From Vicinamibacterales bacterium (lineage in GTDB: Bacteria > Acidobacteriota > Vicinamibacteria > Vicinamibacterales > JAMQPK01), in assembly GCA_963746535.1 (NCBI GenBank), contig CAVVBP010000010.1:899209-963208 (forward strand): a stretch of DNA of 64,000 nt. Reading direction: 5' to 3'. Below are positions 1 to 32,818 of this stretch, one piece after another (the stretch's first letter is position 1; every line of letters begins with the position of its first letter). A program made the translations under genes and the position numbers. The notes below the pieces were generated by a model, which saw only the letters and a program-made list of their open reading frames with translations, did no database searches and had not been told where the DNA came from.

Positions 1-1201
1 ACGCGTAACAGGATGAGCGAGGTGGTCATCCGTTCTCACAAGTTTCATAACACCAGCAGCCGTAAGCGCGACGGCAATAGCCGCGGCGCCTGCCGCGATC
101 AGAATCACACGACGATGCGCACGCGTTGACAGGGAGCTCACGAGCGGGTTGGATGTCGTTTCGAGATCGACGCCGCGCGTCGCCAATATCGCGAAGCCGT
201 TGCTTCGGATCTTTCTCGAAACAACGCCGCAACAGCTCGCGCACTGCTGGCGGCGTGGCGGTCGGCAGCACGGACCAGTCGGGCTCGCGCTCGAGGATGG
301 CTGCAATGACATCCGAGACGGTCTGGCCCCGAAACGCCAAGCGGCCGGTGAGCATTTCATAGAGCACGCAACCGAACGCCCAGATGTCGGTGCGCTTATC
401 GACCGGCAGCGCCGCGTGCCTGCTCGGGGCTCATGTACGGCGGGTGTGCCGAAAATAGCGCCTTCCCGGGTGGCCAGCGTCTCGGTCGCCGGCGCGTTCG
501 ATTGATTCGATGAATGCGCGAACTTCGCCAGCCCGAAGTCCAGCACTTTCACCTGGCCGTCTGCCGTGAGTTTGATGTTCCCGGGCTTGAGATCGCGATG
601 GATGATGCCTTTTTCGTGTGCGGCGTCGAGCGCTTCGGCAATCTGTCGCGCGATCTTCAGCGCATCGCCCATCGAGACAGGTCCCTTGCAGGATCCGCTC
701 GGCGAGTGTGGGCCCTTCCACGAGCTCCAACACCAGCGCCGCGATGCCAGACGATTCCTCAAATCCGTGAATGGTGCCGATGTGCGGGTGGTTTAGTGAA
801 GCAAGTACCCGCGCCTCGCGCTGGAACCTGGAGAGGCGTTCAGGATCGGACGCAATGCCGGCCGGCAGCACTTTGATCGCCACATCGCGACCGAGCTTTG
901 TATCGCGCGCGCGATACACTTCGCCCATCCCGCCCGCGCCGAGCAGCGAGTCAATTCGATAGACGCCGATCTGTTTGCCGATCAGCTCTTCCGTGCCAAT
1001 CCCCAATCCCGAATCCCGAATCCCTAGTCCTGTTCCGAGTGCGTCAGCGCGACTCTGATTGGCGAGCAGGGATTCCACCTCCCCGCGCAGCACATCGTCG
1101 CCAGCGCACGCGTCGCGCACGAACGCCGCACGATCAACCGGCGAGCGCTCGAGCGCGTCGTGACAGATGTCTTCGATGCGCCGCCAGCGGTCGCCGCTCA
1201 T
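1..1201 (-). pseudogene. Ser/Thr protein kinase (ECF43-linked type); 3' end lies beyond window start; four +1 frameshifts as assembled
   Basis: ORF 431..1201 gives the [20 protein letters not shown]-domain plus kinase N-lobe ([17 protein letters not shown]). HRDLKPGNI and DFG are readable in the frame opening at 672. ORF 26..367 gives the C-lobe ([10 protein letters not shown]). A TM segment [17 protein letters not shown] lies in a frame that stays open to nt 1. The start overlaps the upstream kinase stop (ATGA). Confidence 0.85.
996..1030 (-). repeat. GGGATT-family hexamer tract inside kinase linker coding sequence (encodes [11 protein letters not shown])
   Basis: Minus strand reads GGGATTCGGGATTCGGGATTGGGGATTGG, four G-runs with 3-4 nt loops. 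It sits at the same position in all three kinase paralogs. Confidence 0.8.
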
Positions 1202-4079
1202 TCCCTAGTCACGCCCGAGCGTTCGGCGAGCACGATGTCGCTCGACCATTGGACGTAGCCCATGATGAGGGACGAACCGTCGCTGCTCCAGGCCATGCCC
1301 CGCAGATACACGCCGGGCCGGAGGTCCGGCAACTTCCGCGGTGGCTGAGTACCGCCAGGCTCGAAAATCCAGATGTACCCCGCACGTGGGCCGGGCAGTC
1401 CCGCGACGGCCAAAAGCCGCCCATCTGGTGACCAGGACATGAAACCGTTGCCGAACAGGTCTGCGACATCCGGCAGTCCGGTGTAGAGCGGCTTGCCAGT
1501 GCTGCTTACAAAACGCAGCACCGCCGGTGACGGTTCCACGTACGCGATCACATCTTCGCGCGGCGACCAGGCCGGCGCGTGCGCCGCAAGCGGCGTAGAC
1601 ACGCGGCGAGTACGCCCGTCGGCCACCGATACGATGGAGAGACCCGGTACCTTAGCTCCCGGCGTCGCGTACACAATCTCGCGTCCGTCGGGCGACCGAG
1701 CTGAGAGTGTCGAGTACGTCTGCAACAAGAACGAGGCGTGGGGCACCACCCTCGGCGCTCACCACCCAGATACCGCGGCGTCCACCGCGATCCGACACGA
1801 ATGCCACTTGCTGTCCGTCTGGAGAGAACACGGGCCTATCGTCCAGCGCAGGACCCGACGTCAATGGTGTCGGTTGGGTGAGATTTCCCGCCGCCGTCCA
1901 GATGTGACGGTTGCCGTCACGAGACGAGCTGAATAACAAGCGCTGCCCGTCGCGGGACCAGGACGGATCGAAGTCGCCGGTGAAACCATCGGTCAGTGGC
2001 TCGAGCTCGATGGGACGGTCGAATACCACCTGAGCACGCACCAGCCTCTGTCGTGCGTCCACCGACGTGGCGACAAGCCGGCGGCCGTCTGGTGTCACAG
2101 AAGGCGCACCATACTCCCCGACACCGGTCGTCAACCGATGATCCAGTCCCGTCCGAAAGTCGCGCCACCAGAGGCTGAGATCGACGCTGTCTGGATTTGC
2201 CGCATAGTAGAGGCCACGGCCATCAGGACTTGGAAAAGGATATGCCGCGCGCCGCGCGCTCTTCACAACGGGTTCAATCGCGCCGCTGGACGCCAGCGCT
2301 CGATACACCTCCGTCGGCTCGGTGTTGAAATTCTGAATCCCGTAGTTGAAGTAAATGTACTGTCCATCCGGCGACCACCGTGTCCAGTGGATGTGCCGGC
2401 CGTTCTGTATCGGAACAAGCTCGCGTACGTTCTGCCCGTCGGCATCGGCGATGCCAAGGGCGTCGCCCGCGGAACCTCTCCCGCGCGTGAATGAAACCTG
2501 CTTGCCGTCGGGAGACCAGTGGAGGCCGGAATCGGGTGCTTTCAAAAGGGGCCGCGGAACTCCACCAAGCGGGGCTGCAATGACCCACGAATACGTGCCC
2601 ACCTGATCTGGCCGTCGGGCGTCGAAAGCGATCTGCGTTCCGTCGGGCGAGATGTCGAGACCGCTGATGAAATCCTGCGACTGCACGACAAGGCCCGTCG
2701 ACGCGGTGAGGTTAGCTGGATCACCGCCCGCCACGAACTTGACCCAGACGTCAGTCTGTCCGCGGGCGTCCGAGAGATACGCGACCCACTTGCCATCCGG
2801 GGAGATGGCAGGCGCGAATCTGTACGCCGGGGTCGACACCAGTCGCACGATACGATCGAACACGGGGACGGCGTCGGGCGCAGTGCGCAGGGCCAGAACG
2901 GCGATGAGTGTGGCACTCACACCCGCGGTCGCCGAAAGGGCGCTCCAGAGGAGCGTCGATCGGCGGGCGCTCTTGATCGGTTTTGAGGGTGACGCCGTGG
3001 TCGTTTGCAGCGAAGGCCCATCAACGTCTTTCAGCACCGCGCGCGCGTCGCCGATGTCGCGAAGGCGGAGCTTCGGGTCCTTCTCGAGACAATGGCGCAT
3101 CAACCGCAGGACCGCGGGAGGAGTAGCCGCTGGTAGTGCGGTCCAGTCGGGCTCGCGGTCCACGACCGCAGCTAACGTGTCGGTGATCGTCGCGCGTAAG
3201 AAGGACGCCCTCCGCGTCAGCATTTCGTACAACACGCAACCGAACGCCCAGATGTCGGCGCGCTTATCGACCGGCTGGCCGCGCGCCTGCTCGGGGCTCA
3301 TGTAGGCGGCCGTCCCGAGGATCGCGCCTCCACGCGTCCCACCGACGGTCACCGTCGGCGACTGGGTCAGATCCGGTCCGCGACTCGCCGGCAAACACCT
3401 TGGCCAGGCCAAAGTCGAGCACCTTCACGACGCCGTCGGGCGTGATCTTGATATTGGCAGGCTTCAGATCCCGGTGGACGATCCCTCTCTCATGCGCAGC
3501 ATCGAGCGCATCCGCGATCTGCTTCGCGATCCCCAGCGCTTCGCTAAGGGAGAGCGGACCCTTCGCCACACGATCGGCTAACGTCAGGCCCTCAACCAGT
3601 TCCAACACCAACGCACGGTGCTCCGTCCGACTCCTCGACGCCGTAGATCGCCGCCGATGTGTGGATGATTGAGCGACGCGAGCATGCGTGCCTCGCGCTC
3701 GAAGCGTGCCAGCCGGTCGGGATCCGTCGTAAACGCGCGCGGGCAAGAACTTGACGGCCACATCGCGCCCCAGCTTCGTATCGCGCGCGCGATAGACCTC
3801 GCCCATCCCGCCCGCACCGAGCAGCGACACAACCTTGTAAACGCCGATCTGCGTACCGATCAGCTCTTCCGTACGCATTCCCAATCCCGAATCCCGAATC
3901 CCTAATCCCGTTCCGACTGCGTCCGCGCGACTCTGGTTGGCGAGCAGGGATTCCACCTCCCCGCGCAGCACATCGTCGCCAGCGCACGCGTCGCGCACGA
4001 ACGCCGCACGATCATCCGGACGGCGCTCGAGCGCGTCGTGGCAGATGTCTTCGATACGCCGCCAGCGGTCGCCGCTCAC
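1198..4079 (-). pseudogene. Ser/Thr kinase - TM - PD40/TolB-like beta-propeller; multiple frameshifts as assembled
   Basis: Fragments are collinear with the intact paralog 5023..7890. ORF 3264..4160 has [19 protein letters not shown] from GTG 4079, HRDLKPANI and DFG. ORF 3584..3832 has [27 protein letters not shown] 1652..3412 has MSPEQARG, the C-lobe, a TM and SPDG-type propeller repeats. ORF 1198..1749 holds the last blades. Confidence 0.85.
3878..3910 (-). repeat. GGGATT-family hexamer tract inside kinase linker coding sequence
   Basis: Minus strand reads GGGATTAGGGATTCGGGATTCGGGATTGGG, five G-runs. It encodes [11 protein letters not shown]. Confidence 0.8.
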
Positions 4080-4159
4080 TTCTTCAGTCAGCGAGTGTAA
4101 GGAACAGGCATCGGGACTCGAGCCCGTGAGGGATTGTACTTGCCCTCCGCAACTTCCCA

Positions 4160-4232
4160 TGGCCCATTTCGGGGGGCTTTCCCGCCTCTCTGTCCACGGC
4201 CGGAATGCCCCGGCCGCGAGGAGGGCGTCGCG
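4160..4232 (+). promoter_or_regulatory. Conserved 5' leader of the HExxH gene family, diverged copy
   Basis: TGGCCCATTTCG...TTTCCCGCC block, then hairpin GGCCGG-aatgcc-CCGGCC, then SD GAGGAGGG 6 nt before ATG 4233. Partial anti-SD pairing remains (CGCCT with GGGCG). Confidence 0.45.
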
Positions 4233-4832
4233 ATGGGCCGTCTTACCCGAGTTGCTGGATTGGTGCTATGCGCGGCAATGACAGGCTGGCAGCCGGCGGC
4301 AGCTCAGACACCGGAGCGTCTCAGGGTGAAGGTGCTGCTTCAGGACGAAGCCGGGGCGCCAGCCGACCTGCTCGAAGAGGCAAAACGCGCGGCCGCGCGC
4401 GTGTTCGGGCTCTCGAACATCGACCTCGAGTGGCTCGAACCCGGGCCCTATCAGCCTCGCTCTCTCACCCTGAGGGTTGTGGCGGCACCGATCGGCACCG
4501 AGAGCCGTCATCGCTTCGTCCTGGGGATGGCGCCGGGAACGCTAAAGGCACGGGGGATCATCGCCTTCGCCTTCTATGACCGCATTCAGATCTACGGTGC
4601 GGACCTCGGACTCGATGGCTCTCAGATGCTCGGCCATGTGATCGCGCACGAACTCGGTCATCTGCTGCTGCCGTATGACGCGCATTCCCTTACGGGCGTT
4701 ATGCGTAGGGGTTGGGATGAAGCCCAGGCGAACCAGGCAAGGATGGGACTACTGACGTTTACACCACATCAGGCGGCGCTGATACGCGAGCGTCTGTCCG
4801 CTTCCCCTTCGCGTCATGCACCTGCCCGATGA
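4233..4832 (+). CDS. Small secreted HExxH metalloprotease-like protein, paralog 1
   Basis: In frame within ORF 4134..4832; ATG 4233 has an SD. Signal-peptide-like [25 protein letters not shown]. Motif [23 protein letters not shown]. Confidence 0.75.
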
Positions 4833-5022
4833 CGAGAGTAGTGAACAGGCACAGTTATGGCACCATAGCCAGCCGACGGCGATGGTCGGTTAGTGCGGCA
4901 GTTGCTGCATCCACCCGATGGCAATCATGTTCGTCGAGGCTTCCTGGGGCAGGTGGAAAGCCAAGACCTACGCGCGAACGCGCGACCTCAAGACGCAGGG
5001 GCGTGTCGCGCTCAAGCTTGCC

Positions 5023-7890
5023 CTATGGACCGCGGTCGTTCAACCAGAAGTGATCGAACATGACAATGTGACTGACCTCGTCGTTCCGGTTGACGACGAC
5101 TGCGCGTCCCTCGTCGGTCCAACCGGCCCGGAACGTGACGTGAAACGGCAGTCTAGCGGCAATTCGCGACTGGCCCGTCGCGACGTCGAAAATTCGAACG
5201 ACATCGTGCTCGCGGTCTTCGCGAAACGGCGCGCTGATCTCTCGTCCATCCGGCCTGAAAACGGGCAGTGAGTAATTGCCGCCCGTAACAGGCCGCTCCC
5301 AGACAGGCGCACCCCGTTCCACGTCGATGAGTCGCACACCACTGCCAGCGCTCGAGCCCGTCGTGACGATCCACGTACCGCTCCCGTCTGGGCGAGCGAT
5401 CCAGTCGCCGCGGAATCCCTGATCCAACAGCTTCTCCGGCGACCCTCCCGAGGCGCGGATCCGCCAGGTTTCTTGCCGATCGACACGATAGGTCTGATAC
5501 GCAATCCATTCACCATCAGGCGACCATACCGGCCAGGAATCGGCAGGCTCATCACTTGTGAGCTGCCGCAGGTCGGAACCATCGACTCGCTGGGTCCAGA
5601 TGTCCGAATGTCCCGATGCAATCGACGCAAACGCCACGCGTGTGCCGTCCGGTGACAGTGAGGAGTGTGAGATCGCATCACCCGGCACCGTTGTGATCTG
5701 GGATAGGTGCGCGCCGGGATCGGGAGGTGCAGTCCACAGATTGCGGCTGCCACTCGCCGGACTGTTGAAGAGCATTGTTCGTCCATCACGGGACACGAAC
5801 GTCCACAGAGGACCCGCGAACTCGCCAATCAGTCGAACTGCGGCTCGCCCGTTCGTGTCGGGATCGGACCCGAGCGGAACCTTCCAGATTTCCTGTAAGT
5901 AATGGAGGCGTGTCGCGATCAGACGCGATCCGTCAGCCGACACACTTGGTGCATAGAGCCCGTCTCCGACGGTCGTTGTCAGGCGAACGATGGAGCCGTC
6001 CTGGGTATCGAGGACGCCAAGATCGGCGGGCGCCTGCTGTCTCGCCAGCGGCAGGTAGGAAATGACCAGATGCCGGTTGTCTGGCAACCACACCGGCTGT
6101 CCGCCGTCATTGGCGGTCGAGAGCTGCGCCACTCGACGCTGCTGTCCTGTCGACGCATCGACGACGAACACATTGGTCGGTCCGAAAAGCGCCCCATCCG
6201 AATACGTGATCGAGCGGCTATCGGGAGACCACGCTGGACGGCCAACATTGTTTCTGATGCGTTCGACGAGCGTTCGAGCGCCGCTCCCGTCGAGCGCCAT
6301 CACGCCAATGGTCCAGCCATCCTTCCCGCGGGTCAGATATGCCAGGCGTTTTCCATCAGGTGATGGTGCCGGCGTCTGCGCGCTGTCGATGACCTTTCGC
6401 GGTTGTCCGCCCAACGCGCCGGTTCGCCAGATTCCGGTGCCGGCCTCGTCGATGCGCGTGTAATAGATCGTGTCCCCGTCGGGGGCGAAGGCCGGGCGCT
6501 CTTCTTCCGCGGCGTCGCTCGTGAGCCGGACTGGCTCGCCTCCCGACACCTGACGCAGATAGATGTCTGGTGTACCGCCATGATTCGACACGAAGACGAA
6601 CGACCGACCGTCAGGAGACAGTGATCCTCCGGACTCGGTCCCGTCGTAGTTGGTGAGCTGGCTTGCAATTATTCGCGCAGGCACTCCTCCGGAAGACGAT
6701 ACCGTTGCAAGCCGGGTCAACGCGATCGCAACGACGACGGCGCTGATTACAACCCCGGCAATCGCGCCCGCGGCAACCAGAGGCCAGCGCAGGGGCTTTC
6801 TCCCGGACTCAAGCGCTGAATCGGGTTCAGGGGCTGGCGCTCCAGAAGGCGCATCGTCCAACTCGATCCGCGCATCGGCGATGTCGCGCAGTCGTTGGCG
6901 GACGTCCGTTTCAAGACATCGCTGAATCAGACGAGTGATTGGTCGTGGTGTCGCCGAGAGGATAGACCAGTTCGGTCTGCCTTCGACCACAGCGGCCAAC
7001 GTGTCGGTCAGAGTGTCCCGCGCGAAGGCGGCGCGGCCCGCCAACATCTCGTACAGGACGCAGCCGAACGCCCAGATGTCCGTACGCTTATCCACTGGCA
7101 ACCCGCGCGCCTGTTCGGGGCTCATGTAGGCGGGTGTGCCGAAAATGGCGCCTTCCCGGGTGGCTAGCGTCTCGGTGGCCGGCATGCCCGATTGATTCGA
7201 TGAGTGCGCAAACTTCGCCAGGCCGAAGTCCAGCACTTTCACCTGGCCCTCTGCCGTGAGCTTGATGTTCGCGGGCTTCAGGTCGCGATGAACAATCCCT
7301 TTCTCGTGGGCGACATCCAACGCTTCGGCAATCTGCCGCGCGATCTTCAGCGCCTCGCCCATCGAGACCGGCCCTTTAAGGATTCGCTCGGCGAGCGTCG
7401 GGCCTTCCACGAGCTCCAACACCAGCGCCGCGATGCCATCGGATTCCTCGAATCCGTGAATCGCGCCGATGTGCGGATGGTTCAGGGAGGCGAGCACGCG
7501 CGCTTCGCGTTGGAACCTGGTGAGGCGCTCGGGATCGGACGCAATGCCGGCCGGCAGCACTTTGATGGCGACATCCCGCTGCAGCTTCGTATCTCGCGCG
7601 CGATACACTTCGCCCATCCCGCCCGCGCCGAGCAGCGACACCACCTTGTAAACGCCGATCTGCGTACCGATCAGCTCTTCCGTGCTCATCCCCAATCTCG
7701 AAGCACGAATCCCGAATCCCGTTCCGAGTGCGTCCGCCCGACTCTGGTTGGCGAGCAGCGATTCCACTTCGGCGCGCAGGCCCTCGTCGTTGCCGCACGT
7801 CTCGCGCACGAACGTCGACCGCTCGCCCGGAGCGTGCTCGAGCGCGGCGTACACGATCTCTTCGACCCGCCGCCAGTCGCTAATCTCCAA
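5023..7890 (-). CDS. Ser/Thr protein kinase - TM - PD40/TolB-like beta-propeller (intact, 955 aa)
   Basis: ORF 5023..7890 with a TTG start 15 nt after the sigma stop. N-domain EISDWRRVEEIVYAALE; [36 protein letters not shown] segment LVAAGAIAGVVISAVVVAIAL. Many SPDG/WSPDG propeller repeats. Confidence 0.9.
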   Translation of the reverse strand: MEISDWRRVEEIVYAALEHAPGERSTFVRETCGNDEGLRAEVESLLANQSRADALGTGFGIRASRLGMSTEELIGTQIGVYKVVSLLGAGGMGEVYRARDTKLQRDVAIKVLPAGIASDPERLTRFQREARVLASLNHPHIGAIHGFEESDGIAALVLELVEGPTLAERILKGPVSMGEALKIARQIAEALDVAHEKGIVHRDLKPANIKLTAEGQVKVLDFGLAKFAHSSNQSGMPATETLATREGAIFGTPAYMSPEQARGLPVDKRTDIWAFGCVLYEMLAGRAAFARDTLTDTLAAVVEGRPNWSILSATPRPITRLIQRCLETDVRQRLRDIADARIELDDAPSGAPAPEPDSALESGRKPLRWPLVAAGAIAGVVISAVVVAIALTRLATVSSSGGVPARIIASQLTNYDGTESGGSLSPDGRSFVFVSNHGGTPDIYLRQVSGGEPVRLTSDAAEEERPAFAPDGDTIYYTRIDEAGTGIWRTGALGGQPRKVIDSAQTPAPSPDGKRLAYLTRGKDGWTIGVMALDGSGARTLVERIRNNVGRPAWSPDSRSITYSDGALFGPTNVFVVDASTGQQRRVAQLSTANDGGQPVWLPDNRHLVISYLPLARQQAPADLGVLDTQDGSIVRLTTTVGDGLYAPSVSADGSRLIATRLHYLQEIWKVPLGSDPDTNGRAAVRLIGEFAGPLWTFVSRDGRTMLFNSPASGSRNLWTAPPDPGAHLSQITTVPGDAISHSSLSPDGTRVAFASIASGHSDIWTQRVDGSDLRQLTSDEPADSWPVWSPDGEWIAYQTYRVDRQETWRIRASGGSPEKLLDQGFRGDWIARPDGSGTWIVTTGSSAGSGVRLIDVERGAPVWERPVTGGNYSLPVFRPDGREISAPFREDREHDVVRIFDVATGQSRIAARLPFHVTFRAGWTDEGRAVVVNRNDEVSHIVMFDHFWLNDRGP
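7688..7722 (-). repeat. Degenerate GGGATT-family tract in kinase linker coding sequence
   Basis: Minus strand reads GGGATTCGGGATTCGTGCTTCGAGATTGGGG, encoding GFGIRASRLGM. Same position as in the other two kinases but decayed. Confidence 0.6.
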
Positions 7891-7905
7891 TCCCTAATCC
7901 CTAAA
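7887..7905 (-). repeat. TTAGGG-like hexamer tract forming the sigma-kinase intercistronic spacer
   Basis: Minus strand reads TTTAGGGATTAGGGATTGG between the sigma stop (7906) and the kinase TTG (7890). It is purine-rich and may serve as the SD. Confidence 0.7.
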
Positions 7906-8559
7906 TCACTTTCTCCGGAGCTCCCTAAGCAACCAAAGTTTGGCCATCGTCCAGTCGCGCTTCACCGTTCGCACCGACATATCCAGGGCTTCGGCCGTTT
8001 CCTCGATGCTCAACCCGCCAAAGAAGCGCAGCTCGACCACCTGGCTTTTTCTCGGGTCGATCTGCTCCAACGCTTTCAGCGCGTCGTCCAGCGCGATGAC
8101 ATCCGCAGGCTGTTCCACGACACCAACTCGACCTTCGTCGAGCGTCACGTTGTGCGCACCAGCGCCGCGCTTCTGGTATCCGCGGGCGCGCGCACCGTCG
8201 ACCAGGACTTGTCGCATGAGGCGCGAAGACATCGCAAAAAAGTGCGCACGGTCCTGCCATTTGACTTGCCGGGAGTCGACCAGCTTGAGGTAGGCCTCAT
8301 TGACGAGCGCGGTCGGCTGAAGGGTGTGCCCCACGCGCTCGTGTCCCATATGCCGGCGGGCAATGCGGCGCAACTCGGCATGGACCATGGGAACGAGGCG
8401 ATCGAACGCAGCGTCATCGCCGTGTCCCCAGGCCAGGAGGAGCGCCGTTACCTCGGGGTTTGCAGGAATTGGCACCGGAAACCGAGCCGGCGCCCATTCT
8501 ATCCGTCGTTCCTGTCCGGCGTCGTCCTTTCCTCCCACTAATCCCTCCCCAATCCCCAA
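7906..8559 (-). CDS. ECF sigma factor, STK-associated type (ECF43 / Sigma70_ECF PF07638-like)
   Basis: VTALLLAWGHGDDAAFDRLVPMVHAELRRIARRHM..HTLQPTALVNEAYLKLV, with a C-terminal region-4 HTH (LSIEETAEALDMSVRTVKRDW). The longest ORF starts at TTG 8559 inside a repeat; the true start is probably internal, e.g. GTG 8475. Confidence 0.85.
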   Translation of the reverse strand: MGIGEGLVGGKDDAGQERRIEWAPARFPVPIPANPEVTALLLAWGHGDDAAFDRLVPMVHAELRRIARRHMGHERVGHTLQPTALVNEAYLKLVDSRQVKWQDRAHFFAMSSRLMRQVLVDGARARGYQKRGAGAHNVTLDEGRVGVVEQPADVIALDDALKALEQIDPRKSQVVELRFFGGLSIEETAEALDMSVRTVKRDWTMAKLWLLRELRRK

Positions 8560-8563
8560 TCAC
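8531..8563 (-). repeat. GGGATT-family hexamer tract upstream of, or in the 5' end of, the sigma ORF
   Basis: Minus strand reads GTGATTGGGGATTGGGGAGGGATTAGTGGGAGG. Confidence 0.7.
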
Positions 8564-8579
8564 TGTTCGGGTGCCCCGA

Positions 8580-8652
8580 TGGCCCTTTTCGCTCCCGTTT
8601 CCCGCCTCCGGGTTCACGGCCGGGATTCACCCGGCCCCCGGAGGAGGACGAG
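8580..8652 (+). promoter_or_regulatory. Conserved structured 5' leader of HExxH paralog 2 (SD-sequestering helix)
   Basis: TGGCCCTTTTCGCTCCCGTTTCCCGCCTCC is identical in three copies. CCTCCGGG (8605-8612) pairs with CCCGGAGG (8637-8644, overlapping the SD). This encloses the hairpin GGCCGGG-ATTCA-CCCGGCC (8618-8636). ATG at 8653. Confidence 0.55.
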
Positions 8653-9240
8653 ATGGGCCGGGCAGTTTGGATTGCTGGACTGGGGTTGGTGGCGGCTCTC
8701 GCAGCAAGCGATCGCTGCGCTGCGGAAACCATCGAACCGTTGGCCCTCGAGGTACTCGTAATTGACGAGGTGGGTGTTCCCGCCGACACGCTGCGGCAGG
8801 CCCAACAGGAAGCGAGTCGCATCTTAGGAGCTGTGGGGATCAGGCTCGTATGGGTCAGTGGCCAAATGCCGCAGGGTGCTCGTTATCTCGTCATCAGGGT
8901 CATCTCGGAGCCCATGAGCCCCATGACCAGGAACGCTAGTGTGCTCGGCACAGCGGCGTCCTCCAAGAGCAACGGCGCGACGACGGCATCGCTTTTCTAT
9001 GAGCGAATAGTCCAGGAGTCTGGCCGACTTGGAGTTGACGCTTCCCTTCTGCTCGGCCACGTGATGGCGCACGAGATGGGGCATCTACTCCTTCCAGGTG
9101 GATCGCACACACCAACGGGATTGATGAAAGCCGGCTGGGATAGACACCAGTCGGTGCTGGCGTCGACCGGCAAATTGACTTTCGCGCCCAACCAGGCGTC
9201 GCTGATTCGTGCGCGCCTCAGCACGCGAACGAATCCCTAA
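8653..9240 (+). CDS. Small secreted HExxH metalloprotease-like protein, paralog 2
   Basis: ORF 8653..9240. Signal-peptide-like MGRAVWIAGLGLVAALAASDRCAAE. Motif HVMAHEMGHLLLPGGSHTPTGLM. Confidence 0.8.
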   Translation: MGRAVWIAGLGLVAALAASDRCAAETIEPLALEVLVIDEVGVPADTLRQAQQEASRILGAVGIRLVWVSGQMPQGARYLVIRVISEPMSPMTRNASVLGTAASSKSNGATTASLFYERIVQESGRLGVDASLLLGHVMAHEMGHLLLPGGSHTPTGLMKAGWDRHQSVLASTGKLTFAPNQASLIRARLSTRTNP

Positions 9241-9283
9241 TCCCCAATCCCTCAGCCCTAAGCCTTCAGCCTTCAGCCCTCCG
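9232..9283 (-). repeat. Hexamer (CCCTAA/CCCCAA) plus heptamer (CAGCCYT x4) tract between paralogs 2 and 3
   Basis: Plus strand reads AATCCCTAATCCCCAATCCCTCAGCCCTAAGCCTTCAGCCTTCAGCCCT. Minus strand has GGG-ctga-GGG-att-GGGG-atta-GGG. It overlaps the paralog 2 stop codon. Confidence 0.8.
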
Positions 9284-9289
9284 TCCCCC

Positions 9290-9361
9290 TGGCCCTTTTC
9301 GCTCCCGTTTCCCGCCTCCCCGTTCACGGCCGGGATTGACCCGGCCCCTGGGGAGGACGAG
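9290..9361 (+). promoter_or_regulatory. Conserved structured 5' leader of HExxH paralog 3
   Basis: Same 30-nt block. The outer helix is CCTCCCCG (9315-9322) with TGGGGAGG (9349-9356), with two base pairs swapped G-C to C-G relative to copies 2 and 4. Inner hairpin GGCCGGG-ATTGA-CCCGGCC. Confidence 0.55.
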
Positions 9362-9949
9362 ATGGGCCGCACGGGTTGGATCGCAATGGTCGCGCTCTGG
9401 GGAACGCTGATGGGCGCATCAGATGTGGCGGCAGAAGCCTCTGGCCCCATCACGATTCACGCGCGGATCCTTGACGAAGTCGGCCTTCCGGCGAGGACAG
9501 TCCAGCAGGCACAGGATGAGACCAGCCGCATCTTCAAGAGCGCCGGAATCGCGCTGTCATGGCTAACCGACGGTAACTCGCAGGCAGGTACCCTGACGAT
9601 CAAAATCGTCTCGACTCCGCTCGGTTCGAAGGGCAAGAAACAAAACGTGCTCGGCATGGCTCCAGGCTCCAGGGAGACGCGCGGAAGGGTCGCTTGGCTG
9701 TTCTATCCGCGTATTGCCGATCTGGCCGAGGCGCGTCGCATTGAGATCTCGCGGTTTCTGGGTCATGTCATGGCGCACGAGATGGGCCATCTCCTCTTGC
9801 CGTTCGGCTCGCACGCGGTCATCGGACTGATGAAGGACAGCTGGGACTCCCATCAGATTCTTCTTGCATCAGCGGGCACCCTGACGTTCGAACCGAGCCA
9901 GGCCGCGTTGATCCGTGCGCGGCTGCGGGAAACGTCGTCGGGCAACTGA
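9362..9949 (+). CDS. Small secreted HExxH metalloprotease-like protein, paralog 3
   Basis: In frame in ORF 9209..9949; ATG 9362 follows the SD GGGGAGG. Signal-peptide-like MGRTGWIAMVALWGTLMGASDVAAE. Motif HVMAHEMGHLLLPFGSHAVIGLM. Confidence 0.8.
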   Translation: MGRTGWIAMVALWGTLMGASDVAAEASGPITIHARILDEVGLPARTVQQAQDETSRIFKSAGIALSWLTDGNSQAGTLTIKIVSTPLGSKGKKQNVLGMAPGSRETRGRVAWLFYPRIADLAEARRIEISRFLGHVMAHEMGHLLLPFGSHAVIGLMKDSWDSHQILLASAGTLTFEPSQAALIRARLRETSSGN

Positions 9950-10032
9950 CGAGAAACACGAACCCGCTAGACAATTCCTTCTGGCCCTTTTCGAGGCGGA
10001 CTCCCACACGCTGCCGCCGAGCTGATGAAGGG

Positions 10033-10085
10033 GCCTAAGCCTTAGTCCCCAATCCCTCAGCCCTCAGCCTTAAGCCTTCAGCCCT
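10033..10085 (-). repeat. Hexamer/heptamer tract between paralogs 3 and 4
   Basis: GCCTAAGCCTTAGTCCCCAATCCCTCAGCCCTCAGCCTTAAGCCTTCAGCCCT. Same architecture as 9232-9283. Confidence 0.8.
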
Positions 10086-10089
10086 CCGA

Positions 10090-10162
10090 TGGCCCTTTTC
10101 GCTCCCGTTTCCCGCCTCCGGGTTCACGGCTGGGACTTCCCCGGCCCCCGGAGGGAAGCGAG
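10090..10162 (+). promoter_or_regulatory. Conserved structured 5' leader of HExxH paralog 4
   Basis: Same 30-nt block. CCTCCGGG (10115-10122) pairs with CCCGGAGG (10147-10154). Inner hairpin GGCTGGG-ACTTC-CCCGGCC with one G-U wobble. Confidence 0.55.
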
Positions 10163-10759
10163 ATGGGCCAAACGTGCAGAATCGCGGGATTGGTGATGGC
10201 GGCGGTCCTAGTGGGAAGTACGAGGTCGGCGGCCGGACCACTGGAACCGCTGACCTTGGAGGTGCTCGTCCTCGACGGGGTCGGCGTGCCGGCCGATATC
10301 CTCCAACAGGCCCAAGACGAAGCCAGCCGCATCTTCGAGCTTTCCGGCATCCGCCTCGTATGGGCTGGCGGCCGAACCCCGAATGCCCGACACGTGATCC
10401 TCAAAATCGCCTCGGCACCACCCAGCCGCAAGAGTCGCCAACCCGGCGTTCTCGGCCTTGCTGTCGAGACAAACCAAGCCACCGGCATCCTCGCATGGCT
10501 TTTTTACGACCGGATTGACGAGCATCGGCGGGTGCTCGGACTGGAGGCGCCACTGCTCCTGGGTCACGTGATGGCGCATGAAATGGGCCACCTCCTGCTG
10601 CCTACAGGGTCGCACGTGCAGAGCGGGGTCATGAGGGGCGGTTGGGACAAGTTGCAGGCCTCACTCGCGAAATCTCGAAGCCTGCGCTTCGGACCGGATG
10701 AGACCCGCGAGATCCGGGCGCACCTGCTGCGCGACAGCAATCTCGTCGCGATGCGCTAG
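10163..10759 (+). CDS. Small secreted HExxH metalloprotease-like protein, paralog 4
   Basis: ORF 10163..10759. Signal-peptide-like MGQTCRIAGLVMAAVLVGSTRSAAG. Motif HVMAHEMGHLLLPTGSHVQSGVM. Confidence 0.8.
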   Translation: MGQTCRIAGLVMAAVLVGSTRSAAGPLEPLTLEVLVLDGVGVPADILQQAQDEASRIFELSGIRLVWAGGRTPNARHVILKIASAPPSRKSRQPGVLGLAVETNQATGILAWLFYDRIDEHRRVLGLEAPLLLGHVMAHEMGHLLLPTGSHVQSGVMRGGWDKLQASLAKSRSLRFGPDETREIRAHLLRDSNLVAMR

Positions 10760-11830
10760 CGACGTCCAAGGCGCGCTATTGCCCAGCGCAGGTGCTCGCC
10801 AACCACCGGGTCCGATATCGACGGCTCCGAGGGTTCCTCGCGTAATGCCTCGAGCGCGCCGGGGTCGTTCGAGTTTCCGATTGTTACGGCGAGATTACGG
10901 CGCAGCCCTCGTACCCCCGCCCGCGTCATGGACGTCTCTCCGATGAGCCCGGCAAGATCGCTATCGGTGCGCCGCCAGAGATCAACAAGACTCTGCGCGT
11001 TCAAATCGCCGCGCGAGGACCACGACGGATCGACGGGGACGGACCGGCACCGCGTTCCACGGGCACACTTCCTGACAGATATCGCAGCCGAAGATGTGAT
11101 TGCCGATGCCCTCGCGATGCTCTTCTGGAATCGAGCCACGGTACTCGATGGTGAGATACGAGATGCATTTAGTCGCGTCCAGCACATGGGGCGCCGCAAA
11201 GGCACCAGTGGGACAGGCCTCGAGACAGAGCGTGCACGTGCCGCACTGGTCGAGCGAGGGCGAGTCGGCCTCGAGCGGCAGGCTGCAGACGATCGTGCCC
11301 AGCAGCAGCCACGACCCGAGATCGGGATTGATCACGCACGTGTTCTTGCCAATCCAACCGACGCCCGCGTACTGCGCGTAGACACGCTCCTGCACCGGTC
11401 CGGTATCGACATAGGCGCGTGCATCGAAGGGTTCCGTATGCTGCGACCGCATCCAGGCAAGGAGCGCATCGAGGCGCTCACCCAGCACGTCGTGGTAGTC
11501 GCGGCTCCAGGCATAGCGCGCCACTTCCCCGCGCTCGGGATCGTGACGCTCGATCGAATACGGCTCGCCGGTGTTGTAGAGCGCGCCAACGACGATCACC
11601 GAGCGCGCCGTCGGTATGACATTGCGCACGTCGGCGCGTCGCTCGGCCGATCGGGGAAGATACCCCATCGTGCCGGCGTAGCCTTTCGCAATCCACTGCT
11701 TGAAGAAGCCGAGCTCGGGAAAGGCTTCCGCGGGCGCGACGCCGCACAGCTCGAATCCGAGCTCGCGCGCGCGACTCTTTACCGCAACGCTGGTGAGGCT
11801 ATCTTTCGACGCAGAGTCGCAGAGCCGCAC
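10756..11830 (-). CDS. queG: Epoxyqueuosine reductase QueG (one frameshift near 11040 as assembled)
   Basis: The middle of ORF 10982..12208 has KSRARELGFELCGVAP, two 4Fe-4S motifs (CGTCTLCLEACP, CDICQEVCPWN) and TKCISYLTIE. The C-terminal HEAT-like tail is in ORF 10756..11205. The start (GTG 11830) is uncertain. Confidence 0.75.
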
Positions 11831-11913
11831 AGAATCTTCAGGCACCCGTGTCCAGAATGCTCCTGAAAAAAATTCTCTGCGCCTCAGCGTCTCTGCGTCA
11901 AGGCTTGCTTCTC

Positions 11914-13529
11914 TTACGGCAGCGCGAACGCCGTCAGCGTGCTGCCGGCCGGGACGAGGTAGGTACTGACGTCCGTCCACCATGTAGGTCGTCCCGCCTG
12001 TCGAGCGGACGCCGGTACCGAGCTGGTAGTGCCACAGATTCCGGCCGGTCTTGGTCTCGACTGCCATGACGTTGCCGTCGCCGTCGCCGGCAAACACCAG
12101 GCCCGAGGCCGTCGTCAGGACACCGGAGGAGGAAACCGTCGAGTAGCGGAACTCCCACTTCCGATCGCCCGTGACGGGATCGATCGCGCGCAAGGCACCG
12201 TAGTTCACGTGACTGCGTCAGACGCACGCCGCCGCCGCCCGCGTAGCGTTCACCGTCTTGAACGGCTCGTTGTACGAGTAGTACGTCGCGCACGTCTCGC
12301 GCGCCGTCACGATGAAGAGCCGGTTGGTGGGATCGTAGGACGGAGAATAGAAATTCGTCCCGCCGCCGGCATCGGGACACGTTCGCGCCCCTTCCTCCGT
12401 CGGCAGTGTGCCCGGGCAGCAGCATCGGCCGGCCTTCGGGACTGATTTCCTTCGCCCAGGTCGTCTGGACGAACGGCTTGGCGACGATCATGCTTGCCCG
12501 TTGGTGCGATCGAGCGTGTAGAAGAAGCCGTTGCGGTTGGCGAACATCACGCCTTGCGCGGCTGCCCGCTGATGGTCAGGTCGGCGAGGATCGGCACCTG
12601 CGTCGAATCCCAGTCGTGCACGTCGTGCGGCGTGAACTGGATAGTGCCAGCGCAGCTTGCCGGTGTCGGCGTCGAGCGCGACCAGCGACGCCGTGTACAG
12701 GTTGTCGCCTTCGCGCGCGGCGCTGTAGTAGTCGGGACCCGGGTTGCCGGTGCCGTAGAAGACCAGGTTCTGCTCCGGATCGTAGGTGCCGGTCACCCAG
12801 ATCGATCCGCCGCCGCCGATCGTCCAGCGAATCGCCCGCGGCCACGTGTTGTCGCCCGGCTCGCCGGGCCCGCGACGCGTGTAGAAGCGCCACGCGCGCT
12901 TGCCGGTGTGTCGCGTCGTACGCGTCGATGAAGCCGCGGATGCCGAACTCGCCGCCGGCGACGCCGACGATGACTTTGTCCTTCACGACGAGCGGCGCGA
13001 CGGTCGACCGAGTAGCCGCGACTTGTAGTCGGCGAGCGTCGACGTCCCAGACGACCGCGCCGGTCTTCATGTCGAGCGCCAGGAGATGCGCGTCGAGCGT
13101 GCGCCATGAACAGCCGGTCGCCGAGCACGCCGAAGCCGCGATTGACCGGCCCGCAGCACGCCCTGAGGTCGTCGGGCAGCTTACGGCGGTAGCGCCAGAT
13201 CTGCCGTCCGGTGCGCGCGTCGATCGCCCACGCGTCGCTCCCGCAGCCCGTGACGTACAGGACGCCGTCGATCACGAGCGGCGTCGATTCGAAAGTTGCC
13301 GAGCGTGCCGGTCTGGAACGTCCACTGCGGATTCGAGCTGGCCGACGTTCTCGGGCGTGATCTGCGTCAGCGGGCTGTGCCGATGGCCGACGTAGTTGCC
13401 CGAGTAGGTCAGCCACTTCGTGCCGTCCTGCAGGCCGGCGAGGATGTCCTGGTTGGTGACGGTGGGCGGGCCGGCCTGCTGCGCCGCGAGTGAAACCGAG
13501 CAGAGGACGGCCATCAACAAAGGACGCAT
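11914..13529 (-). pseudogene. PQQ-dependent dehydrogenase (methanol/ethanol family), paralog 1; many frameshifts as assembled
   Basis: Fragments in ORFs 13272..13616 (MRPLLMAVLCSVSLAAQQ signal), 12793..13416, 12576..13070, 12488..12796, 11934..12491 and the 5' part of 10982..12208 are collinear with the intact paralog 13639..15249. Removing one inserted nt restores the ...TLTAFALP* terminus at 11914. Confidence 0.8.
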
Positions 13530-13546
13530 AGGGCCTCCCTGAAACT

Positions 13547-13620
13547 TGTCATGGCAGATGGCAAATGGCAAATGGCAAAGAGTTCCTGCTGCCATCAGCC
13601 ATCTGCCATGTGCCATGACA
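13547..13620. repeat. TGCCAT-hexamer imperfect hairpin element (intercistronic)
   Basis: TGTCATGGCAGATGGCAAATGGCAAATGGCA, an 11-nt loop, then TGCCATCAGCCATCTGCCATGTGCCATGACA. Arms are about 31 nt and mostly complementary. Confidence 0.8.
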
Positions 13621-13638: not shown

Positions 13639-15249
13639 CTACGGCAGCGCGAACGCGGTCAGCGCGGCGCCAGACGGGAACAGCAGATACTGCTTGCCAT
13701 CCACCATGTATGTCGTCCCGCCAGTCGACCGCAGGCCCACGCCCGTCTGGTAGTGCCACAGGTACTTTCCGTTCCTCGAATCGAGCGCGATGAGGTTGCC
13801 GTCGCCGTCACCCGAAAACACCAGGCCCGACGCCGTCGTCAGGACACCCGACGATGAGGTGCCCTGATAGCGGAACTCCCACTTGCGTTCGCCGGTGATC
13901 GGATCGATCGCGCGCAGCGCCCCGTAGGCTACGTGGTCAGGTGCCCGTGTCGTCCCGCCGGACTGGTACTGTTCCCCCCTCCTGAACGGCTCGTTGAAGG
14001 TGAAGTAGGTGGCGCACGTCTCTTGTGCGTTCACGAAAAACAGCCGTTGCGTCGGGTCGTACGACGGCGAATAGAAGTTGGTGCCGCCGCCCAGATTGGG
14101 GCATACCTTGGTGCTGCCTTCCTCGCTCGGATTGGTGCCAGGGTTGAGAATTGGCCGTCCCTCCGGGCTGATCTCCTTGGCCCAGTTCTGCGCGATGAAC
14201 GGTTTGGCCAGAATCATCCGGCCGTTCGTCCGATCGAGCACGTAGAAGAACCCATTGCGATTGGCAAACAACATGGTCTTGCGCGGTGTGCCGTTGATCG
14301 TGAGATCGGCGAGCACCGGCACCTGCGTCGAATCCCAGTCGTGCAAGTCGTGCGGCGTGAACTGAAAATGCCACTTCAACTGCCCGGTGTCGGCGTCCAG
14401 TGCGACTGCCGAACACGTGTAGAGGTTGTCTCCCTCGCGCGCCGGGCTGTAGTAATCGGGGCCCGGATTACCGGTGCCGAAGAACACCAGATTCTGTTCG
14501 GGATCGTATGTGCCTGATACCCAGATCGACCCGCCACCCCGCAAATACGCGTCCGAGCCTTTCGGCCACGTCTGCCCGCCCGGCTGATCGGGACCGGCCA
14601 CGGTATAGAACCGCCAGATCCTCTTCCCTGTGTTCACGTCGTACGCGTCGATGAACCCGCGAATGCCGAACTCCGCGCCGGCCACGCCGACGATCACTTT
14701 GTCTTTCACCACGATCGGGGCCACCGTGACCGAATATCCGTGTGAATACTCAGCCATCTCGGCATCCCAAATCACGTCGCCCGTCTTGATGTCGAGCGCA
14801 ACGATGTGCGCGTCGCCAGTGCCGAGAAACAGTTTGTCGCCAAGAACCGCCATGCCTCGGTTGTTCGGACCGCAGCACCCGCGGAAGTCGTCGGGCATGT
14901 TGCGACGGTACCGCCAGATCTGGCGGCCGGTTCGCGCGTCGATGGCCCAGGCGTTGCCGTTGAAGCCCGTGACATACAAGACGTTGTCTACCAATAGCGG
15001 CGTCGTCTGGAAATTCGGTGTGAGGCCCGTCTGGAAGGTCCACTGCGCTTTGAGTTGGCTGACGTTGGCGGCCGTAATCTGCGTCAACGGGCTGAACCGA
15101 TGACCCGCGTAGTTGCCGTGATAGATGAGCCACTTCGATCCGTCGCTCGGAAGGCCGCCAAGGATGTCCTGGCCTGTCACGGTGCCCGGAGCGGGCTGTT
15201 GCGCCGCGAGCGTGACCGAGCAGATGAGCACGAGCAGCAACGGACGCAT
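13639..15249 (-). CDS. PQQ-dependent dehydrogenase (methanol/ethanol family), paralog 2, intact
   Basis: In ORF 13639..15342; ATG 15249 has SD GGAGGCC. Signal MRPLLLVLICSVTLAAQQ. Vicinal Cys RGCCGPNNRG. Propeller W-motifs. HDWDST around the catalytic Asp. Confidence 0.85.
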   Translation of the reverse strand: MRPLLLVLICSVTLAAQQPAPGTVTGQDILGGLPSDGSKWLIYHGNYAGHRFSPLTQITAANVSQLKAQWTFQTGLTPNFQTTPLLVDNVLYVTGFNGNAWAIDARTGRQIWRYRRNMPDDFRGCCGPNNRGMAVLGDKLFLGTGDAHIVALDIKTGDVIWDAEMAEYSHGYSVTVAPIVVKDKVIVGVAGAEFGIRGFIDAYDVNTGKRIWRFYTVAGPDQPGGQTWPKGSDAYLRGGGSIWVSGTYDPEQNLVFFGTGNPGPDYYSPAREGDNLYTCSAVALDADTGQLKWHFQFTPHDLHDWDSTQVPVLADLTINGTPRKTMLFANRNGFFYVLDRTNGRMILAKPFIAQNWAKEISPEGRPILNPGTNPSEEGSTKVCPNLGGGTNFYSPSYDPTQRLFFVNAQETCATYFTFNEPFRRGEQYQSGGTTRAPDHVAYGALRAIDPITGERKWEFRYQGTSSSGVLTTASGLVFSGDGDGNLIALDSRNGKYLWHYQTGVGLRSTGGTTYMVDGKQYLLFPSGAALTAFALP

Positions 15250-15266
15250 AGGGCCTCCATGACGCG

Positions 15267-15346
15267 TGTCATGGCAGATGGCAAATGGCAGATGGCAGAG
15301 CTGTCCCTTGCCATCATCCATCTGCCCTCTGCCATTTGCCATGACA
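15267..15346. repeat. TGCCAT-hexamer imperfect hairpin element (intercistronic)
   Basis: TGTCATGGCAGATGGCAAATGGCAGATGGCAGAG ... TTGCCATCATCCATCTGCCCTCTGCCATTTGCCATGACA. Confidence 0.8.
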
Positions 15347-32754: not shown

Positions 32755-32818
32755 GATTAGGGATTGGGGATTAGCAGGGATCCGGGCCCCTAATCCCGAA
32801 TCCCCAATCGCCAATCCC
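32755..32818. repeat. GGGATT-family hexamers in inverted-repeat arrangement
   Basis: GATTAGGGATTGGGGATTAGCAGGGAT, then ccgggc, then CCCTAATCCCGAATCCCCAATCGCCAATCCC. There are G-runs on both strands. Confidence 0.75.

Follow-up and report, generated by a model that had tools for sequence, protein, structure and literature searches.

PD40-propeller regulators paired with small secreted metzincin-like proteins, and a candidate leader RNA, at an ECF43-type sigma locus of a Vicinamibacterales bacterium

The window analysed here is a 64-kb stretch of the genome of a Vicinamibacterales bacterium (Acidobacteriota; contig CAVVBP010000010.1, positions 899,209 to 963,208), and its first 10.8 kb hold signalling genes that stand head to head with genes for small secreted proteins. 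The window encodes one ECF43-like extracytoplasmic function (ECF) sigma factor, one intact Hanks kinase with a PD40 propeller (K1) and four intact paralogs of a family with an HExxH motif (H1 to H4). Two further kinase paralogs (K2 and K3) are disrupted. The features are listed below in window coordinates (SD, Shine-Dalgarno sequence; TM, transmembrane segment; ORF, open reading frame).

1..1201, minus strand: K3, kinase paralog with N-terminal and kinase domains; gene cut by the window edge, frame broken at least twice, probable pseudogene
1198..4079, minus strand: K2, kinase-TM-PD40 paralog; frame breaks at about 3731, 3652/3618, 3356 and 1700, probable pseudogene
4159..4232, plus strand: H1 leader; block 1 TGGCCCATTTC, block 2 TTCCCGCCTC (anti-SD), inner hairpin GGCCGG/CCGGCC, SD GGAGG
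4233..4832, plus strand: H1, secreted HExxH (metzincin-like) protein of 199 aa, divergent from K2
5023..7890, minus strand: K1, intact receptor Ser/Thr kinase of 955 aa; N-domain, Pkinase, TM, PD40/TolB-like propeller
7875..7906, no strand assigned: heptamer repeats (AATCCCN)n spanning the junction between the sigma stop and the K1 start
7906..8559, minus strand: ECF sigma factor, longest ORF; PF07638/TIGR02999, likely start GTG 8475
8579..8652, plus strand: H2 leader; three-tier hairpin pairing block 1 with AUGGGCC and block 2 with the SD
8653..9240, plus strand: H2, secreted HExxH protein of 195 aa, divergent from the sigma gene
9289..9361, plus strand: H3 leader; outer stem with a compensatory CCCCG/UGGGG variant
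9362..9949, plus strand: H3, secreted HExxH protein of 195 aa, tandem copy
10089..10162, plus strand: H4 leader
10163..10759, plus strand: H4, secreted HExxH protein of 198 aa, tandem copy

A preliminary description of this DNA had the sigma gene followed after 15 nt by a kinase gene, members of one small protein family facing both signalling operons divergently, and four such members, three of them in tandem, each with a signal peptide, an HExxH motif and a leader. This layout is borne out: the sigma gene matches PF07638 and K1 is intact, H1 faces K2 and H2 faces the sigma gene, and the four paralogs are present as described. The remaining 53 kb of the window contain no further sigma, kinase or propeller matches, and the window itself contains no winged helix-turn-helix (wHTH; Trans_reg_C) regulator. 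For comparison, one genome per GTDB species was scanned with the peptide pattern LGHVMAHE, which yielded 79 loci, cited below by L numbers. Nearly all of them come from metagenome-assembled genomes (MAGs) of Acidobacteriota (Vicinamibacterales, Bryobacterales, Terriglobia, Acidoferrum); a few near-identical loci carry odd taxonomic labels, probably through mis-binning.

The sigma factor matches PF07638 over 182 of the 185 profile positions (E 4.8e-55) and TIGR02999 above its cutoff (E 3.3e-67). Its likely start is GTG 8475, giving 189 aa, as the 97%-identical ortholog of L002 has an ORF of only 190 aa. Region sigma-2.2 reads LQPTALVNEAY: it is uncharged, carries a conserved Thr and has the acidic DAED motif replaced, and the stretch HTLQPTALVNEAYL is also kept in the orthologs of L002, L006, L037, L046 and L064. 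Among the ORFs of the first 10.8 kb none encodes an anti-sigma domain, the neighbours of the sigma gene being K1 and H2 only. ECF43 sigmas lack the acidic sigma-2.2 motif and an anti-sigma, and stay inactive until the neighbouring Hanks kinase phosphorylates the conserved Thr (PMC8999054, PMC13147305). Because of its adjacent Hanks kinase, the lack of an anti-sigma gene and the uncharged, Thr-bearing sigma-2.2, the window sigma carries, as judged from its sequence, the published hallmarks of this kinase-linked group, to which it had already been assigned. The earlier statement that a Vibrio member is activated by its neighbouring kinase is also correct, and corresponds to EcfP/PknT (PMC8999054).

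On the sigma strand, a TATAAT-like -10 box lies just 5' of the sigma start in several loci (L037 at about 9905-9925, L049 at about 9790-9810, L048 and L010). In L037 and L049 a perfect TATAAT stands 7-8 nt before the sigma ATG, which by its position implies leaderless sigma mRNAs; the window version is TAGAAT (8486-8491). These boxes hint at the housekeeping sigma as the one that transcribes the sigma operon, consistent with post-translational activation.

K1 starts 15 nt past the sigma stop codon and runs uninterrupted for 955 aa. It consists of an N-terminal helical domain of about 70 aa, a Pkinase domain (81-334), a hydrophobic span (about 373-398) and PD40 repeats, and its propeller region shows additional similarity to the propellers of DPP-IV and prolyl-oligopeptidase. 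The N-terminal domain is common to K1, K2 and K3, and the K2 stop codon overlaps the K3 start (ATGA, 1198-1201), both as previously described; the description of three kinase-propeller paralogs, two of them forming a coupled pair, was nevertheless overstated, as the frames of K2 and K3 are broken. Homology of K2 to K1 switches frame at least four times (near 3731, 3652/3618, 3356 and 1700) and that of K3 two or more times (ORFs 431-1201 and 26-367 are separated by a stretch in another frame). Both are probably real pseudogenes, decaying duplicates, because their long neighbours are intact and the indels are concentrated in K2. Apart from K1, the window has intact ORFs of 949, 931 and 633 aa and many of 500-950 aa, and when compared with L004, 1,035 nt of K2 contain six frameshifting indels, whereas 600 nt of H1 are free of them. 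The opposite view, that K2 and K3 are intact genes with frameshifts introduced by long-read consensus errors in the assembly, would leave the locus with three working kinases. It draws on the split genes also seen in related long-read MAG loci (L001, L004, L007, L008) and on the intact 960-aa kinase of the Illumina-assembled locus L006. It is unlikely, since the breaks fall outside homopolymers and cluster in K2, K3 and one paralog of a pyrroloquinoline quinone (PQQ)-dependent dehydrogenase, in addition to the uneven indel counts just given.

Among the four HExxH proteins of the window, identity to H1 is 39-44% and identity to H2 is 44-51%. A hydrophobic signal with an AxA-like site at its end forms the N terminus of each, and an invariant HExxH lies within the motif LGHV(M/I)AHE(M/L)GHLLLP common to all four. 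They are predicted to be Sec-secreted, with about 170 aa in the mature form, and the signal-like segment is disordered in the AlphaFold2 (AF2) model. None of the four matches any Pfam or NCBIfam family, so that the family lies, as supposed, outside characterised peptidase models; weak Peptidase_M10 matches occur in 4 of 62 distant members (best E 2.6e-4), and the NCBIfam fragilysin model gives an E of 0.023, far under its cutoff. The AF2 model of H2 has a predicted local distance difference test score (pLDDT) of 77 (core above 90) and a pTM of 0.76, and its secondary-structure elements follow one another as in a small zincin. Its best PDB matches in Foldseek are the catalytic domains of fragilysin, snapalysin, karilysin and matrix metalloproteinases (MMP), with E 1e-3 to 1e-2 and TM 0.41-0.51; YbeY is also among the matches. 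A profile of the family run against PDB sequences weakly matches the zinc site and Met-turn of fragilysin (E 0.016), its invariant Met (GLM) aligning with the DLM of the fragilysin Met-turn.

The family resembles fragilysin (Bacteroides fragilis toxin, BFT), snapalysin, karilysin and MMPs in mature size, in the predicted order of beta-sheet and helices and in having an HExxH followed by a His and a Met. Unlike the minimal metzincins, it has the consensus HEMGHLLLPxGxH, in which the third His follows the second by 8 residues, not 6, and no Gly stands at +3; nor does it have a recognisable pro-domain or cysteine switch. The metzincin comparison proposed earlier thus yielded a weak likeness of fold, and the family is best called metzincin-like on the strength of the model, being kept apart from the metzincins because it lacks the HExxHxxGxxH motif. 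In alignments of 28 and 62 sequences the H, E, H, third His and the Met six residues later are invariant or nearly so, and this conservation of catalytic residues points to an active enzyme. A word-index search found 52 relatives. A profile search of 1.84 billion cluster representatives (50% identity) returned 11,301 at E<=1e-3, a number that falls to 7,623 at E<=1e-10 and to 906 at E<=1e-30; two-domain proteins are among them. In L021 (9044-10510, plus strand), two Asp_protease_2 (retropepsin-like) stretches share the open frame of the HExxH domain. A different small secreted HExxH protein (GHELQHAIE) adjoins a PF07638 sigma gene in L065 (2650-3165, minus strand) and L070 (about 6248-6333, minus strand). 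Scanned with the anti-phage defence models of PADLOC, the HExxH proteins and the sigma factor have no match, and K1 has generic kinase-domain matches only.

Gene neighbourhoods were classified in the 74 loci with at least 1.2 kb of upstream sequence. In 59 of them (80%), drawn from different orders, the HExxH gene is divergent from a PD40-propeller regulator, which is of wHTH type in 31, wHTH-kinase type in 8, sigma type in 18 and kinase-first in 2. Among the 68 nearest divergent upstream ORFs, 29 match Trans_reg_C, 14 Pkinase, 12 PF07638 and 33 PD40. Three architectures recur, and in all of them the DNA-binding part is proximal to the HExxH gene. The first is Trans_reg_C-TM-PD40 (about 700-750 aa, with Trans_reg_C at residues of about 30-108; e.g. 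L011, L013, L036). The second is Trans_reg_C-Pkinase-TM-PD40 (about 1,000 aa), exemplified on the minus strand by L041:6798-9812, L060:6404-9442, L073:6714-9782, L074:6654-9662 and L042:6331-9366; from their domain content, these proteins are membrane-bound DNA-binding kinases, each divergent from an HExxH gene. The third is that of the window, with a separate sigma followed by an N-domain-Pkinase-TM-PD40 protein (about 950 aa). All-against-all clustering of the flanking ORFs found propeller regulators within 6 kb in 66 of 78 loci, and no other recurrent neighbour cluster in these 78 loci.

The conserved partner of the HExxH gene is the PD40 sensor, not the sigma factor, since more loci use a winged helix than a sigma. 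The preliminary description had made the HExxH genes an arm of the sigma/kinase pair: their association with signalling genes stood up to the neighbourhood counts, and what needs correction is the partner, the sigma being present in 18 loci. The synteny is strong support for a functional link of the HExxH genes with the signalling genes. That the adjacency is incidental, with HExxH genes merely sitting in a duplication-prone region of genomes where sigma and kinase paralogs abound, would suit the richness of Acidobacteria in such paralogs (PMC3174227), the flux of the locus itself (tandem copies, two broken kinases, heptamer repeats at junctions) and the absence of K1 from the close relative L004. 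The comparative counts make this very unlikely. The head-to-head arrangement is kept across orders, and the background density of these regulators in 1.31 Mb of flanks is far lower, with 40 adjacent-divergent wHTH matches against 9 elsewhere and 18 adjacent-divergent sigma matches against 10 elsewhere; the rest of the window is likewise devoid of other sigma or kinase genes.

The clades of HExxH proteins follow regulator type, except for one that contains both sigma-type and wHTH-kinase-type loci, suggesting interconversion of the two. In the wHTH-type intergenic regions of L011, L012, L015, L018, L019, L033, L035 and L047, inspection reveals conserved CGT(T/A)AC/GTAAT-like repeats about 21-22 nt apart together with a CATTGAGGTAC box; these are candidate operators, as expected for OmpR/ToxR-type regulators. 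An additional gene separates the regulator from the HExxH gene in several loci (L020, L038, L055, L078). In L004, whose sigma is 98% identical to that of the window, the sigma gene (10617-11177, minus strand) comes directly after an H1-like gene (10001-10564, plus strand), and the H2-like gene (11317-11848, plus strand) is broken, yet its leader is intact.

The leaders occupy about 75-84 nt before each HExxH start of the window and are 71-90% identical between paralogs, compared with only about 40-50% for the proteins. Their core motif occurs exactly four times in 64 kb, against 0.00 expected. A leader precedes every HExxH paralog in the related Vicinamibacterales loci, and more diverged forms exist in L052, L064, L065 and L070; in L065 and L070 the 5' block of the leader stands before the GHELQHAIE genes too, combined there with another covarying hairpin (GAGGACC/GGUCCUC). 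A covariance model found 25 copies in 1.38 Mb, every one before an HExxH gene of a sigma-type locus; winged-helix-type loci have none. The structured leader reported earlier is therefore present in all four window copies and specific to a group of clades, not a trait of the whole family. Rfam 15, its RNA thermometers and riboswitches included, gives no match at gathering score anywhere in the window, and none at E<=1 over 4000-10400. Truncated remnants made of blocks 1 and 2 and followed by no HExxH gene occur in L001 (11328-11371) and L032 (13634-13680), and by their sequence these look to be traces of lost tandem copies.

Folded singly, all leaders give one three-tier hairpin in which the SD is paired. 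The start region ((C)GAxAU-GGGCC) is paired by block 1 (UGGCCC UUUUC) and the SD (GGAGG) by block 2 (CCUCC), and an inner GC stem changes in compensatory fashion (GGCCGGG/CCCGGCC, GGCCGGC/GCCGGCC, GACCGG/CCGGUC, GAGGACC/GGUCCUC, GCGAGUC/GGCUCGC). The minimum free energy of the H2 leader, with 24 nt of coding sequence included, is about -54 kcal/mol. On a model-guided alignment, pairing is kept in 88.7% of cells, and double changes are seen at 11 of 24 pairs. None of 500 shuffles equals the real alignment in paired fraction, double-change counts or covariation score, and sliding the partners by 1-3 columns makes pairing far worse. These counts refer to the final structure, on an alignment fitted to a covariance model whose outer helix was off by 3 columns and which recovered all copies through P2, P3 and sequence. 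RNAalifold on a MAFFT alignment of the leaders returned almost no structure, because differences in loop length misaligned the stems. Covariation support for the leader is moderate and falls short of proof, because the sequences are closely related and the alignment was fitted to a structure.

It is rather unlikely that the leader acts mainly as DNA, as a sigma-dependent promoter or operator made of TTTTCG...GTTTCCCGCC and a palindrome, with RNA folding as a by-product. The 5' block keeps its sequence across sigma-type lineages, including those with a different hairpin, wHTH-type loci do not have it, and the inner stem is a DNA palindrome as well, all of which such a role would explain. It would not explain why stems covary with differing sequences or why it is the SD and the start codon that are paired. 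The two blocks, moreover, lie only 5-10 nt apart, a spacing for which TTTTCG...GTTTCCCGCC was rejected as a -35/-10 pair. In the tandem copies the preceding stop codon stands 10-50 nt before the leader, a distance that favours an RNA element per cistron over a promoter. Two other candidates were discarded. A sigma-54 promoter at TGGCCC-N-GC fails on spacing. An upstream open reading frame (MALFAPVSRL...) has no SD, and third codon positions show no excess of substitutions between copies. No trans-acting complement of the anti-SD block occurs in the window.

Tandem heptamers, (AATCCCN)n or (GGGATTN)n on the minus strand, are also concentrated at the locus, with 26 matches in the window against 0.38 expected. 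Seven of their eight sites lie within the HExxH/kinase locus and the eighth at 32755-32816. Besides the sigma/K1 junction, they occur in the linker coding regions of the kinases (998-1029, 3876-3914, 7687-7725) and just 5' of the H2, H3 and H4 leaders (8544-8568, 9232-9263, 10037-10061), so that GGGAUU repeats would be present in kinase mRNA and their complement, AAUCCC, in HExxH transcripts. The same heptamers are present in L001, L002 and L005, and they presumably resemble the short tandemly repeated repetitive (STRR) heptamers of cyanobacteria. They may act as a recombination hot spot, form a G-rich structure or allow RNA-RNA pairing.

Taken together, the window probably holds one working copy, alongside decayed duplicates, of a conserved two-part regulator/peptidase module in which the sigma factor would activate the four peptidase genes. 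The first part would be a membrane regulator with a periplasmic PD40/TolB-like beta-propeller sensor, and the second one or more divergent genes for a small Sec-secreted zinc peptidase of metzincin-like fold. In the proposed course of events, the K1 propeller would sense a periplasmic cue, plausibly a peptide or unfolded protein, given that the propeller resembles DPP-IV and TolB. K1 would then phosphorylate the sigma factor at the Thr conserved in its uncharged sigma-2.2; activation of the sigma by K1 is drawn by analogy with known pairs. The activated sigma would transcribe the divergent HExxH gene and its tandem copies, which we infer to be direct transcriptional targets of the regulator. 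Translation would still require opening of the leader hairpin, in which block 1 pairs with AUG-GGC-C and CCUCC with the SD. The leader, presumed to repress translation, would thereby act as a second checkpoint for a protease in which no pro-peptide can be recognised. The wHTH versions of related genomes would carry out phosphorylation and transcription within one protein, with or without a kinase.

Several observations weigh against this reading. The locus sample stems from a single peptide pattern, consists mostly of MAGs and includes some suspect labels. The partner gene is missing in about 20% of the loci, and copy numbers in the window are unbalanced, with one intact kinase and four peptidase genes. 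The metzincin fold matches are weak (E about 1e-3, TM 0.45-0.5), and the canonical motif HExxHxxGxxH/D is not found in the family. As to expression, a scan for sigma-70-type promoters of the HExxH genes gave nothing, and no ECF -35/-10 pair could be derived by eye, only the TTTTCG...GTTTCCCGCC block. Sequestration of the SD is not general in the HExxH family (mean pairing 0.70 versus 0.70 in controls, p=0.23). Finally, the 5' block TTTTCG-N5-10-GTTTCC(C)GCC is common to sigma-type loci of several lineages, and its conservation could reflect a protein-recognised site instead of RNA.

The imbalance of copies bears equally on a doubtful alternative that nonetheless deserves some weight, namely that the peptidase acts on the sensor, instead of or besides being an output. 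In that case it would clip or bind the propeller of the neighbouring regulator and switch the kinase or wHTH on or off, much like a dedicated site-1 protease or co-sensor, and together with sigma-dependent expression this would create a self-reinforcing or self-limiting loop. Most loci pair regulator and peptidase nearly one to one, peptidase clades follow regulator type, and the propeller is the conserved partner whatever the cytoplasmic output. PknS without its periplasmic domain was autophosphorylated, unlike full-length PknS, so that removal of the ectodomain could activate such a kinase (PMC13147305). A tight translational lock would also suit a dangerous feedback component. The HExxH genes are, however, divergent and not co-operonic like partners of the ToxS, TcpH or PsaF type, and in the window four peptidase copies face a single intact sensor. 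A broader version, in which the peptidase is an output and also the protease that turns its own PD40 sensor on or off, is improbable enough to be offered as speculation: it would be a protease-gated switch wired interchangeably by Acidobacteriota to wHTH, wHTH-kinase or kinase plus sigma, with translation locked by the leader in the clade of the window and the heptamers perhaps coupling the arms at the RNA level.

Like the EcfP/PknT pair of Vibrio parahaemolyticus and the EcfK/PknS pair of Xanthomonas citri, the regulator/peptidase module of the window has an ECF sigma beside a transmembrane Ser/Thr kinase and no anti-sigma, and the window pair is an ordinary member of this known class. As in PknS, whose periplasmic domain restrains autophosphorylation (PMC13147305), an extra N-terminal helical segment precedes the kinase domain. 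An uncharged sigma-2.2 with the conserved Thr is also common to them, reading QPTA in the window and STTA/QTTA in EcfP/EcfK (PMC8999054, PMC13147305). The differences lie in the sensor, a PD40 propeller in place of the TPR repeats of PknS, and in the candidate target, divergent small secreted metallopeptidases in place of polymyxin-resistance or type VI secretion system genes. Kinases linked to ECF43 sigmas are already known to have diverse sensor domains (PMC13147305). The HExxH partner in 31-39 related loci shares with ToxR/CadC an N-terminal winged helix, one TM and a periplasmic sensor. It departs from them in that the sensor is a PD40 propeller and in that 8 loci place a Ser/Thr kinase between wHTH and TM; the window, for its part, uses sigma and kinase, and has no ToxS- or TcpH-like co-operonic partner. 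The leader hairpin, which pairs an anti-SD with the SD and occludes the AUG, recalls ROSE and fourU thermometers. Unlike these, it has three tiers, a sequence-conserved 5' block and a repetition before each tandem cistron, and its predicted stability (-40 to -55 kcal/mol) far exceeds that of a thermometer.

Literature searches retrieved no description of a module combining a PD40 regulator, the HExxH family and the leader. As far as the searchable literature goes, what is new is the pairing of PD40 regulators with HExxH genes, the three interchangeable transducers including the wHTH-kinase-TM-PD40 form, and the leader RNA. The module is built of familiar parts, and nothing in it is mechanistically unprecedented as yet.

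Downstream of H4, a PQQ-dependent dehydrogenase paralog (11951-13616, minus strand) is broken over at least three frames and directly adjoins an intact 567-aa copy (13639-15342, minus strand). The tail of the broken copy continues in frame into a QueG-like (epoxyqueuosine reductase) ORF (10982-12208).

Acidobacteriota are among the most abundant soil bacteria and have exceptional numbers of ECF sigmas and Ser/Thr kinases. The literature searched contained no defined regulon for acidobacterial ECF sigmas or kinases. The module described here places a concrete, conserved candidate target gene beside its regulator, which can be tested in any tractable member. With the same sensor and target served by three transducers, it also constitutes a natural swap experiment between kinase-to-sigma signalling and one-component membrane regulators. 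In addition, a large unannotated family of mini-metallopeptidases, comprising thousands of clusters at 50% identity, is now defined, as is a new leader RNA that is a candidate translation lock. For the kinase-dependent sigmas of acidobacteria, a defined regulon candidate is thus now open to direct testing.

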